Part shown: positions 48,665 to 53,295 of the stretch, piece by piece
Layout of the letters: every line of letters begins with the position of its first letter
Position numbering within the stretch: position 1 is the first letter of the stretch
Assembly (NCBI GenBank): GCA_964016885.1
Contig: OZ024766.1
Span: 21,266,001-21,330,000, forward strand
Source: Eledone cirrhosa
Taxonomy: Eukaryota
DNA: 64,000 nucleotides
Direction: 5' to 3'
The notes under the pieces: generated by a model
What the model was told of the DNA's origin: nothing
Seen by the model: the letters and a program-made list of their open reading frames with translations, nothing else
Databases searched by the model: none
Made by a program: the position numbers and the translations under genes

Positions 48665-50200
48665 AGGCTGGAGTCAGGGTTCCAGAGCAAGAGAGCGGAT
48701 ATGATTTCATTGCTGGCACGGTGACAGTGGCCAGAAAATTGAGCTCTCCGGGATTTTAGAAGGGCAGAGGCTCGAGGGAGTTTGCCATAGATTTTAGACA
48801 AGGTGGGACGTCGTTTCCAGGATAGGTTTTGCACTCTCATTAAGAGGCAGGTATATGTGCCATCCAATCTCCTCTCAGAGTCAGGGTTCCAGAGCAAGAG
48901 AGCGGATATGATTTCATTGCTGGCACGGTGACAGTGGCCAGCAAATTGAGCTCTCCGGGATTTTAGAAGGGCAGAGGCTCGAGGGAGTTTGCCATAGATT
49001 TTAGACAAGGTGGGACGTCGTTTCCAGGATAGGTTTTGCACTCTCATTAAGAGGCAGGTATATGTGCCATCCAATCTCCTCTCAGAGTCAGGGTTCCAGA
49101 GCAAGAGAGCGGATATGATTTCATTGCTGGCACGGTGACAGTGGCCAGCAAATTGAGCTCTCCGGGATTTTAGAAGGGCAGAGGCTCGAGGGAGTTTGCC
49201 ATAGATTTTAGACAAGGTGGGACGTCGTTTCCAGGATAGGTTTTGCACTCTCATTAAGAGGCAGGTATATGTGCCATCCAATCTCCTCTCAGAGTCAGGG
49301 TTCCAGAGCAAGAGAGCGGATATGATTTCATTGCTGGCACGGTGACAGTGGCCAGCAAATTGAGCTCTCCGGGATTTTAGAAGGGCAGAGGCTCGAGGGA
49401 GTTTGCCATAGATTTTAGACAAGGTGGGACGTCGTTTCCAGGATAGGTTTTGCACTCTCATTAAGAGGCAGGTATATGTGCCATCCAATCTCCTCTCAGA
49501 GTCAGGGTTCCAGAGCAAGAGAGCGGATATGATTTCATTGCTGGCACGGTGACAGTGGCCAGCAAATTGAGCTCTCCGGGATTTTAGAAGGGCAGAGGCT
49601 CGAGGGAGTTTGCCATAGATTTTAGACAAGGTGGGACGTCGTTTCCAGGATAGGTTTTGCACTCTCATTAAGAGGCAGGTATATGTGCCATCCAATCTCC
49701 TCTCAGAGTCAGGGTTCCAGAGCAAGAGAGCGGATATGATTTCATTGCTGGCACGGTGACAGTGGCCAGCAAATTGAGCTCTCCGGGATTTTAGAAGGGC
49801 AGAGGCTCGAGGGAGTTTGCCATAGATTTTAGACAAGGTGGGACGTCGTTTCCAGGATAGGTTTTGCACTCTCATTAAGAGGCAGGTATATGTGCCATCC
49901 AATCTCCTCTCAGAGTCAGGGTTCCAGAGCAAGAGAGCGGATATGATTTCATTGCTGGCACGGTGACAGTGGCCAGCAAATTGAGCTCTCCGGGATTTTA
50001 GAAGGGCAGAGGCTCGAGGGAGTTTGCCATAGATTTTAGACAAGGTGGGACGTCGTTTCCAGGATAGGTTTTGCACTCTCATTAAGAGGCAGGTATATGT
50101 GCCATCCAATCTCCTCTCAAGTTGTCATGTTAGTGTCCAAGTTTCGGATCCATAAAGTAATATGGGGTTAATGGTTGCTTGGAATATTTCCAGTTTTAGA
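48665..50200 (-). mobile_element. RTE-like LINE family B, inverted 5' segment with 7 x 207-bp near-identical units
   Basis: [56 protein letters not shown]. Confidence 0.9.
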
Positions 50201-50334
50201 TAGTGTGGTGTGTTCTGTTTTTTGATATAATTAAAGTAAGGGGTCTCCTATCTTTAAAACTCTCGGGATATCTCTCATGGTGTGTAACCTAAACATACAG
50301 ATCTGCCATTTCTTACTCATTATATCTCCTGGAA

Positions 50335-50838
50335 GCACCCAGTACACTCTGTAAAGTGGTAATACTGGAGCCACAACAAAGAGCACCTAGTTTTCACTCT
50401 GTAAAGTGGTAGTGTTGGTGTCATGATATAATACACCCAGTACACTCTGTACAGTGGTAGTGTTGGTGTCATGATAAAATACACCCAGTACACTCTGTAA
50501 AGTGGTAGTGTTGGTGTCATGATATAATACACCCAGTACACTCTGTAAAGTGGTAGTGTTGGTGTCATGATATAATACACCCAGTACACTCTGTACAGTG
50601 GTAGTGTTGGTGTCATGATATAATACACCCAGTACACTCTGTAAAGTGGTAGTGTTGGTGTCATGATAAAATACACCCAGTACACTCTGTAAAGTGGTAG
50701 TGTTGGTGTCATGATATAAGACACCCAGTGCACTCTGTAAAGTGGTAGTGTTGGTGTCATGATATAATACACCCAGTACACTCTGTAAAGTCGTAATGTT
50801 GGTGTCATGATATAATACACCCAGTACACTCTGTAAAG
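50335..50838. repeat. ~10 x 48-bp minisatellite related to the 49-bp RTE-UTR unit
   Basis: ACACCCAGTACACTCTGTAAAGTGGTAGTGTTGGTGTCATGATATAAT. Confidence 0.9.
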
Positions 50839-50854
50839 TAATATGGGCTTAATC

Positions 50855-53218
50855 GAACCCTGACTCCAGCCTAACTAGGAGTAGGGAGCTGTCACTCCCT
50901 GACGTTATCTCTAGGGATACGGGAATCATCAGACAGGATCTGGGGGCTGCGATGGGGGACAGGCTCCCTGACGTTATCTCTAGGGATACGGGAATCATCA
51001 GACAGGATCTGGGGGCTGCGATGGGGGACAGGCTCCCTGACGTTATCTCTAGGGATACGGGAATCATCAGACGGGATCTGGGGGCAGCGATGGGGGGACA
51101 GGGTCCCTGACGTTATCTCTAGGGATACGGGAATCATCAGACAGGATCTGGGGGCAGCGATGGGGGGACAGGGTCCCTGACGTTATCTCTAGGGATACGG
51201 GAATCATCAGACAGGATCTGGGGGCAGCGATGGGGGGACAGGGTCCCTGACGTTATCTCTAGGGATACGGGAATCATCAGACGGGATCTGGGGGCAGCGA
51301 TGGGGGGACAGGGTCCCTGACGTTATCTCTAGGGATACGGGAATCATCAGACAGGATCTGGGGGCAGCGATGGGGGGACAGGGTCCCTGACGTTATCTCT
51401 AGGGATACGGGAATCATCAGACGGGATCTGGGGGCAGCGATGGGGGGACAGGGTCCCTGACGTTATCTCTAGGGATACGGGAATCATCAGACAGGATCTG
51501 GGGGCAGCGATGGGGGGACAGGGTCCCTGACGTTATCTCTAGGGATACGGGAATCATCAGACAGGATCTGGGGGCAGCGATGGGGGGACAGGGTCCCTGA
51601 CGTTATCTCTAGGGATACGGGAATCAGCAGACAGGATCTGGGGGCTGCGATGGAGGGACAGGGTCCCTGACGTTATCTCTAGGGATACGGGAATCAGCAG
51701 ACAGGATCTGGGGGCTGCGATGGGGGGACAGGGTCCCTGACGTTATCTCTGGGGATACGGGAATCATCAGACAGACGGGATCTGGGGGCTGCGATGGGGG
51801 GACAGGGTCCCTGACGTTATCTCTGGGGATACGGGAATCATCAGACAGACGGGATCTGGGGGCAGCGATGGGGGGACAGGGTCCCTGACGTTATCTCTGG
51901 GGATACGGGAATCATCAGACAGACGGGACCTGGGGGCAGCGATGGGGGGACAGGGTCCCTGACGTTATCTCTGGGGATACGGGAATCATCAGACAGACGG
52001 GATCTGGGGGCAGCGATGGGGGGACAGGGTCCCTGACGTTATCTCTAGGGATACGGGAATCATCAGACAGGATCTGGGGGCTGCGATGGGGGGACAGGGT
52101 CCCTGACGTTATCTCTAGGGATACGGGAATCAGCAGACAGACAGGACCTGGGGGCTGCGATGGGGGGACAGGGTCCCTGACGTTATCTCTAGGGATACGG
52201 GAATCAGCAGCAGCAGACAGGACCTGGGGGCTGCGATGGGGGGACAGGGTCCCTGACGTTATCTCTAGGGATACGGGAATCAGCAGCAGCAGACAGGACC
52301 TGGGGGCTGCGATGGGGGGACAGGGTCCCTGACGTTATCTCTAGGGATACGGGAATCATCAGACAGACAGACGGGACCTGGGGGCTGCGATGGGGGGACA
52401 GGGTCCCTGACGTTATCTCTAGGGATACGGGAATCATCAGACAGGATCTGGGGGCTGCGATGGGGGGACAGGGTCCCTGACGTTATCTCTAGGGATACGG
52501 GAATCAGCAGCAGCAGACAGGACCTGGGGGCTGCGATGGGGGGACAGGGTCCCTGACGTTATCTCTAGGGATACGGGAATCAGCAGCAGCAGACAGGACC
52601 TGGGGGCTGCGATGGGGGGACAGGGTCCCTGACGTTATCTCTAGGGATACGGGAATCATCAGACAGACAGACGGGACCTGGGGGCTGCGATGGGGGGACA
52701 GGGTCCCTGACGTTATCTCTAGGGATACGGGAATCATCAGACAGGATCTGGGGGCTGCGATGGGGGGACAGGGTCCCTGACGTTATCTCTAGGGATACGG
52801 GAATCAGCAGACGGGACCTGGGGGCAGCGATGGGGGGACAGGGTCCCTGACGTTATCTCTAGGGATACGGGAATCATCAGACAGGCAGACAGGACCTGGG
52901 GGCAGCGATGGGGGACAGGGTCCCTGACGTTATCTCTGGGGATACGGGAATCATCAGACAGGATCTGGGGGCTGCGATGGGGGGACAGGGTCCCTGACGT
53001 TATCTCTAGGGATACGGGAATCATCAGACAGGCAGGATCTGGGGGCAGCGATGGGGGACAGGGTCCCTGACGTTATCTCTAGGGATACGGGAATCATCAT
53101 CAGACAGACGGGACCTGGGGGCTGCGATGGGGGGGGGGGGGGGCAGGGGAAGTCTGGGGGCAGGAGGGTGAGATCCGTCATCTCGACCGTAGTCGACGAA
53201 TGATGCTGATGGATGATT
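50855..53218 (+). mobile_element. RTE-like LINE family B, forward 3' segment with ~31 x 70-bp units
   Basis: Translates NPDSSLTRSRELSLPDVISRDTGIIRQDLGAAMGDR..EVW..VRSVISTVVDE* plus a TGA-rich tail; continues the 48665 segment. Confidence 0.85.
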
Positions 53219-53295
53219 GCTGGCCACGGGCAAGCCCCTAGCAGAACTAAAGCGGCCCTCGTCCATATTACTCGAGAAATTGTGGTACTGCAGCT

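Follow-up and report, generated by a model that had tools for sequence, protein, structure and literature searches.

We found that two tandem arrays in the genome of Eledone cirrhosa, with repeat units of 207 and 70 bp, are the opposed halves of one LINE insertion, as a preliminary description of this DNA had proposed; they are adjacent parts of one young RTE-type element. The locus probably goes back to a single event, in which a young LINE with one ORF was inserted into an older repeat and 5'-inverted by twin priming, while a template switch during integration brought in a block of other DNA; the arrays would have grown later. The halves are opposed and overlap by 19 bases, the flanks rejoin, the block has a single source, and there are microhomologies at both of its ends; the steps of the event are what we infer from this arrangement. 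The element is dead, and the explanation needs no function.

The insertion and its target site

The window, by which we mean the whole 64,000-nucleotide stretch that was analysed (OZ024766.1, our contig C27; G000:C27:21266001-21330000), lies about 1 Mb from one end of its contig, which is 22.4 Mb long; the assembly totals 3.0 Gb. Micro- and minisatellites are densely packed throughout it. An exon of a gene neighbours the insertion; it had no PDB match, and a family search did not find the gene's next exon. A search of Rfam with positions 46000-56000 returned no match. The features of the locus are listed in Table 1.

Table 1. Features of the insertion and its target, in window positions; family positions are those of the natural copy L141.
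Feature	Positions	Strand	Remarks
Older interspersed repeat, 5' part (insertion target)	48534..48668	+	14 sister copies; about 12% divergence from their majority
Left copy of the target-site duplication (TSD)	48653..48668	+	12/16 identical to right copy; last 5 bases also match the LINE
Inverted LINE piece	48664..50199	-	family positions 5957-6250; 294 bases collapsed; without 3' tail
Seven 207-bp units	48671..50119	-	69 codons, in frame; two substitutions common to all units; junction identical at 8 other loci
Captured non-LINE block	50197..50839	+	634 bases between microhomologies TAG and TAAAGT; copy of G000:C27:21599130-21599721 (minus)
48-bp array	50345..50839	+	one unit of 50 bp, nine of 48 bp and a partial one; repeat motif very frequent in the genome
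Second copy of 20 LINE bases	50834..50853	-	family positions 5984-6003; identical to most sister copies
Forward LINE 3' end	50855..53217	+	family positions 6232-6399; 168 bases collapsed; stop codon 53201-53203; short GAT-type tail
70-bp array, 31 units of 69-78 bp	50897..53134	+	element's most G-rich stretch; junction only at this locus
Right copy of the TSD	53216..53231	+	first 11 bases are the host-repeat majority
Older repeat, 3' part	53216..53297	+	continues the same repeat as 48534..48668, up to its CAT-type tail

Collinear alignment of the collapsed halves to one family had been named beforehand as the point on which the proposal would turn, and the two halves do align in this way. In addition, both are contiguous, on one strand and in order at all 29 sister loci, which had been fetched with the left half; the order checked was left half, 20-mer where covered, start of the right half and end of the right half. 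The reading frames agree with what had been described: the minus-strand frame ends in LLLWNPDSSL at 48665, an 18-mer occurs once per strand (50855 on plus, 48665 on minus), and the plus frame continues TRSRELSLPDVISRDTGIIRQDLGAAMGDR and ends in VVDE-stop, matching residues ~995-1050 of the intact family copy P0001. The 18-nt duplication reported at the inversion point is present, and it can be refined to an overlap of 19 bases in family coordinates (6232-6250), of which the window shows only 18 because the right half has changed at the nineteenth base.

In family coordinates, the end of the left piece and the start of the right piece lie within 19 bases of each other, and the left piece stops at the target duplication. 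It is without a tail and is thus not an insertion of its own. We looked for the layout of a 5' inversion, namely an inverted internal piece at the 5' flank, a tailed forward piece at the 3' flank, and ends that lie close together in element coordinates, and found all of these. No microhomology was seen at the inversion junction, where one base (50854, between the second copy of the 20-mer and the forward half) is explained by neither half. Collapsed, the LINE content is 294+20+168 bases, to which the 634-base block is added. The earlier view that a fragment of well under 1 kb had grown to the present size holds for the LINE part (0.46 kb) but not for the whole, since the 48-bp array probably came from elsewhere and eight other loci have the 207-bp junction too. 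The window also holds a second LINE family, with two inverted copies and one forward copy; the former are the other 5'-inverted copies of a different family that had been noted before (~34262-35706 and 59288-61575).

The candidate for a diverged TSD lies at a real site, where two halves of one older repeat meet. The left flank matches all 14 copies of this repeat. In 11 of the 14 the right flank matches as well (E<0.01); its match either shares about 16 bases with that of the left flank or, where the latter stopped short, directly adjoins it. Aligned on the older repeat, the two flanks are in register, and the right one runs on to the repeat's tail. The flanks are therefore two halves of one repeat, which confirms the position of the candidate TSD, although only 12 of its 16 bases agree. 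It extends to 16 bases, with one mismatch in the last five, which follow the LINE, and three in the first eleven. Four of the last five bases of the left copy match the right copy, and those five match the LINE; this is likely a priming microhomology, weak on its own. Three differences in the first eleven bases are too many for an age of 1-2% and count against our favoured reading.

The LINE family and the frequency of inversion

The natural copy L141 has an open frame of 1050 aa with endonuclease and reverse transcriptase domains. In P0001, also 1050 aa, these were identified as RVT_1 (E 5e-31) and Exo_endo_phos_2 (E 2.9e-6), and by tblastn the window halves are 94-97% and 76% identical to it. 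Family copies have the hallmarks of a LINE: a fixed 3' end with a tail, variable 5' truncation, and target duplications. The architecture is that of a single ORF without ORF1, about 3.6 kb long, with a microsatellite or GAT-type tail and duplications of 8-12 bases. A single ORF is a criterion for the RTE clade. The RTE label appears to fit, and it rests on architecture, since the 120 homologs listed carry no clade names.

To estimate how often the family inverts, we relied on a census with an exact 28-base marker, which favours young copies and has 560 matches in the genome, array units included. The first 100 matches comprise 54 on the largest contig (C1), all of which were examined, and 46 on C2, of which 12 were fetched. 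Six of the 54 on C1 are clearly inverted (L254/L314, L261/L312, L271, L275, L284 and L291), which is 11% with a 95% interval of 4-23%. One more (L249/L315) is inverted without a 3' end, and L251 is a fold-back. The 12 copies fetched from C2 included no clear inversion and one fold-back. Among loci selected by the 3' end, 6 of 78 are inverted, and five of the 78 also belong to the C1 set. At the inversion point, most inverted copies show a gap or an overlap of 5-56 bases; in two the gap is larger. Clean duplications of 8-12 bases accompany six of the sister inversions, while most others lie inside microsatellites. By these counts about one in 10 family copies is inverted, probably through the copying of one RNA from both cut chromosome ends, a behaviour reported chiefly for human L1.

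The block between the halves

A 20-nt repeat had been described at 50153 and 50834 as bracketing an intervening insert. The repeat is present (19/20 identical), but it is no bracket: it is LINE sequence copied twice. The LINE sequence runs on for 27 bases beyond the first 20-mer, to 50199; the non-LINE block begins at 50200, and bases 50200-50833 are not family sequence. We considered whether the 20-mer could be the target duplication of a later insert, and this is ruled out by those 27 further LINE bases and by the block's own donor.

The unique part of the block has two genomic candidates, the window itself and C27:21599587-21599718, which is 283 kb away and reversed. The block is a 96% copy of this donor locus, which carries a matching 48-bp array (one 50-bp and eight 48/49-bp units) in non-LINE surroundings. 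Over its first 198 bases it differs from the donor by 3 substitutions and one 4-base gap; it is about as young as the inverted half. It is joined by a 3-base microhomology on the left and a 6-base one on the right. A templated insertion is recognised by a genomic source that is still in place and by microhomology at the joins, and both are found here. The 48-bp array was likely imported along with the block. As for a wider segmental duplication, that idea was dropped: in 39.5 kb around the donor, only common repeats match the window outside 50197-50839.

Origin and spread of the arrays

The two LINE arrays differ in their distribution. The 70-bp junction has 29 matches, all at this locus. Its array has ordered unit variants and a 300-bp higher-order block that is present twice, and by a G4Hunter-type score it overlies the most G-rich stretch of the element; quadruplex-driven instability may lie behind it. 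The 207-bp array has a single difference among its seven units, and its junction has 27 base-exact matches, spread over nine loci (six on C27, two on C23, one on C22). These three contigs make up 2.8% of the assembly, a pattern that was noticed after the fact and that includes two loci with a common 5' flank. With the junction at nine loci on three small contigs, the array was likely not born at this locus. A 118-bp junction also recurs, at three loci on C22 and C27 (40 candidates were scored).

No internal tandem repeat was found in 66 family copies on C1 and C2. Five of the eight other 207-bp loci begin inside a unit, and they consequently contain bases beyond the reach of simple local duplication. 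At three of the loci the same variants occur in all units except the last; other C27 loci have different shared variants, which are absent from the census. In the window, all seven units have a private substitution that is seen in none of ~38 census copies. From this shared change, it is likely that the number of 207-bp units grew, or that the units were homogenised, in place.

How the junction moved between loci can be approached in more than one way. An array-bearing source RNA accounts for the starts inside units, but arrays would then be expected on all contigs and would share their last unit, and neither was seen. A better fit is a junction copied from one neighbouring copy to another. 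The bases that flank it show no matching microhomology for recurrence by slippage. As a wider and tentative reading, to which we would give less than even weight, this invertebrate RTE-type LINE may twin-prime in about one in 10 insertions, and its dead copies on small chromosomes may swap ready-made junctions, and unrelated DNA from hundreds of kilobases away, so that minisatellites spread and recombination at them leaves a GC-biased scar.

Unequal divergence and alternative explanations

The order of events that we favour would be as follows. The right-hand DNA end would have primed on the tail of the RNA, with 168 bases copied, and the left-hand end would have primed inside the RNA at the 4-of-5 match, with at least 294 bases copied in the opposite direction. 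The left strand would then have slipped at TAG onto the locus 283 kb away and switched again at TAAAGT, copying 20 LINE bases before it was joined to the first strand with one extra base. Later, a G-rich 69-bp segment would have been duplicated at the locus and grown to 31 units. The 207-bp junction would have been acquired ready-made, from a neighbouring copy or an array-bearing RNA, and its unit count would then have grown in place.

Some results count against this order of events. The inverted half has 4 differences in 287 bases from the family majority, whereas the forward half has 12 substitutions in ~160 bases, above all 162 sampled copies (maximum 6.5%). The halves differ in divergence by Fisher's test (p=0.0006; the forward half enters with 14 in 169, an automatic count that includes an ambiguous G-run). 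The changes lean from AT to GC (9:4, versus 64:148 in the census, p=0.006), while the host flanks lack such a lean (6:8 and 5:4). Candidates for the excess in the forward half are mutation or GC-biased conversion beside the G-rich array, a left half rewritten from a younger copy, or sequence error.

The second of these candidates leads to another history, in which the left half of an older and shorter twin-primed insertion was rewritten later by multi-template repair of a break. The first template would have been a younger LINE copy with an array on the same contig and the second the distant donor locus, with rejoining at the 20-mer. One such event would cover both the young inverted half and block and the older-looking forward half and TSD. 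It would account for the duplicated 20-mer, for a 207-bp junction common to five other C27 loci, and for unit variants shared among C27 copies that are absent from the C1/C2 census. However, we searched for an older subfamily as the source of the forward half and found a best other match of 90%, with no copy of the 162 sharing more than 3 of its 12 variants. This point is weakened by the census favouring young copies. The AT-to-GC lean is also unlike neutral ageing, and three ordered switches would be required after the insertion. We consider later repair the main rival, though unlikely. It keeps one insertion with inverted halves, as does twin priming with a template switch during integration.

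The difference in apparent age and the imperfect duplication could also point to two unrelated events, a short forward insertion with a separate LINE fragment, or a later DNA-level inversion, beside it. This seems very improbable for a left piece that ends no more than 19 family bases from where the right piece starts, without a tail and at the TSD, and for a layout that is repeated in twelve sister copies. Similarly, there is little to recommend the idea that errors of assembly produced the arrangement, the array lengths or the odd substitutions. In its favour, the seven 207-bp units hardly differ, and neither tested junction was bridged by two public contig sets and RAD reads, with no cover of the right flank at 95%. 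On the other hand, the flanks beyond both outer junctions fit together, in register, as one host repeat, the block is not identical to its donor and hence is no collapsed duplicate, and the 70-bp array shows unit variants in a definite order together with a higher-order duplication. Missing read cover proves nothing, and the public runs may come from other individuals; among the five public runs (X1-X5, four at each of two stretches), the absence of a contig or RAD read spanning either tested junction says nothing either way. Twin priming with a template switch is the most probable history of the locus.

Comparison with known systems

The twin-priming model for 5'-inverted human L1 is reportedly that of Ostertag and Kazazian (2001). 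Our literature searches, on inversion, templated capture, octopus repeats and TE-derived minisatellites, yielded no report of twin priming for RTE or invertebrate LINEs; a direct comparison of these clades, said to be given by Ichiyanagi and Okada (2008), may already include RTE inversions.

In one study in human cells, inversions were seen with L1 only, apart from one Nimb-2 insert (PMC4245944), and 5' inversion has hitherto been treated as dependent on L1 and a human host. A frequency of 6 to 8 in 54 in an RTE-type family from a different phylum would mean that inversion is a general outcome of target-primed reverse transcription, and it could then be tested in an element with a single ORF, which is simpler. 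Three steps on the way from jumping gene to minisatellite are preserved together at this one locus. Repeat annotation would split this one 0.46-kb insertion into three unrelated-looking satellites.

RTE-clade LINEs have 7-15-bp target duplications and a microsatellite-like tail (PMC6007223); the family described here likewise has one long endonuclease and reverse transcriptase ORF and such a tail, and its 8-12-base duplications start with A. RTE activity in octopus is described in PMC13282606 and, reportedly, in PMC9115989. The accounts of 5'-inverted human L1 (PMC2912911; 10.1101/2024.08.27.596794) show the same inverted internal piece at the 5' flank, tailed forward 3' end, inversion point with a short gap or overlap, target duplication (diverged here) and microhomology at the 5' junction. 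Inversion duplications of human L1 have a median of 22 bp in 10.1101/2024.08.27.596794, with which the 19-base overlap here is in line, and microhomology at the inversion junction is not universal according to PMC2912911. In contrast to human L1, our case concerns a single-ORF RTE-type element with a GAT-type tail in an invertebrate host, with ~8-11% of copies inverted versus ~31% for lineage-specific human and chimpanzee L1.

The block resembles L1 templated insertions (10.1101/2024.08.27.596794; PMC11702581) in that non-LINE genomic DNA was copied in and the source left in place. Here, however, 634 bases came from 283 kb away and lie between inverted halves, and 20 further bases of the LINE come after them, whereas tumour cases are typically <250 bp and from <15 bp away; this discrepancy in size and distance counts against our favoured reading. 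For the arrays, TE-derived minisatellites (Ahmed and Liang 2012, PMC3389668) and squamate SINE-derived satellites (PMC10702118) also consist of tandem units from part of a retroposon with its ends attached. They too involve young elements and prefer chromosome ends, and the window is about 1 Mb from a contig end. They differ from the present case, which has two opposed arrays in one insertion and a 207-bp junction that is base-exact at nine loci on three small contigs. Each of twin priming, templated capture and LINE-derived minisatellites has been described before; what is new is the clade and host, and the capture is unusually distant.

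Array junctions and inversion geometries in the LINE family

The array-bearing copies of the LINE family on three small contigs of the assembly (L233–L240 and L321, on C22, C23 and C27) have exact array junctions in common, with the 207-bp array in frame and the 118-bp array out of frame. Two of these copies, L236 and L237, lie 750 kb apart; they have a minimum of 36 bases of 5' flanking sequence in common, but not the 3' flank.

Other geometries of inversion are also found in this family. In two fold-backs (L300 and L251), the same family base starts both the inverted and the forward piece, and a TA-rich spacer lies between them. 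In three further copies (L241, which is almost full length, L242 and L314), the inverted piece reaches the 5' end of the element, so the entire 5' part has been retained, but flipped.

Surroundings of the insertion and a second family

The older repeat that received the LINE (copies L077–L090) resembles the head of the LINE family in its 5' part and has a different 3' end, a combination that makes this repeat a possible short, non-autonomous partner. The likely transporter exon terminates at a GT donor approximately 4 kb ahead of the insertion; a family search did not find the next exon. At several sites of this contig end, 49-bp arrays are 94–97% alike, and 72-bp arrays are likewise alike.

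Features in the window and at related loci
Feature	Position	Orientation	Details
Likely first coding exon, nucleotide-sugar/triose-phosphate transporter family gene	window 44221-44601	+	PF03151, E 1.8e-11
Fold-back inversion	L300:1885-2708		
Fold-back inversion	L251:3274-3574		
49-bp/72-bp array sites	window 11295-12923, 15770-18012, 55517-56749; C27:21608000-21611900	both	
Second RTE-type family copy	window 9325-10955	forward	
Second RTE-type family copies	window 34262-35706, 59288-61575	inverted	

All three copies of the second RTE-type family in the window carry a 96-bp unit despite their differing breakpoints, and two of the three have a 109-bp unit in common. The pattern is again one of junctions common to neighbouring copies, as in the LINE family.
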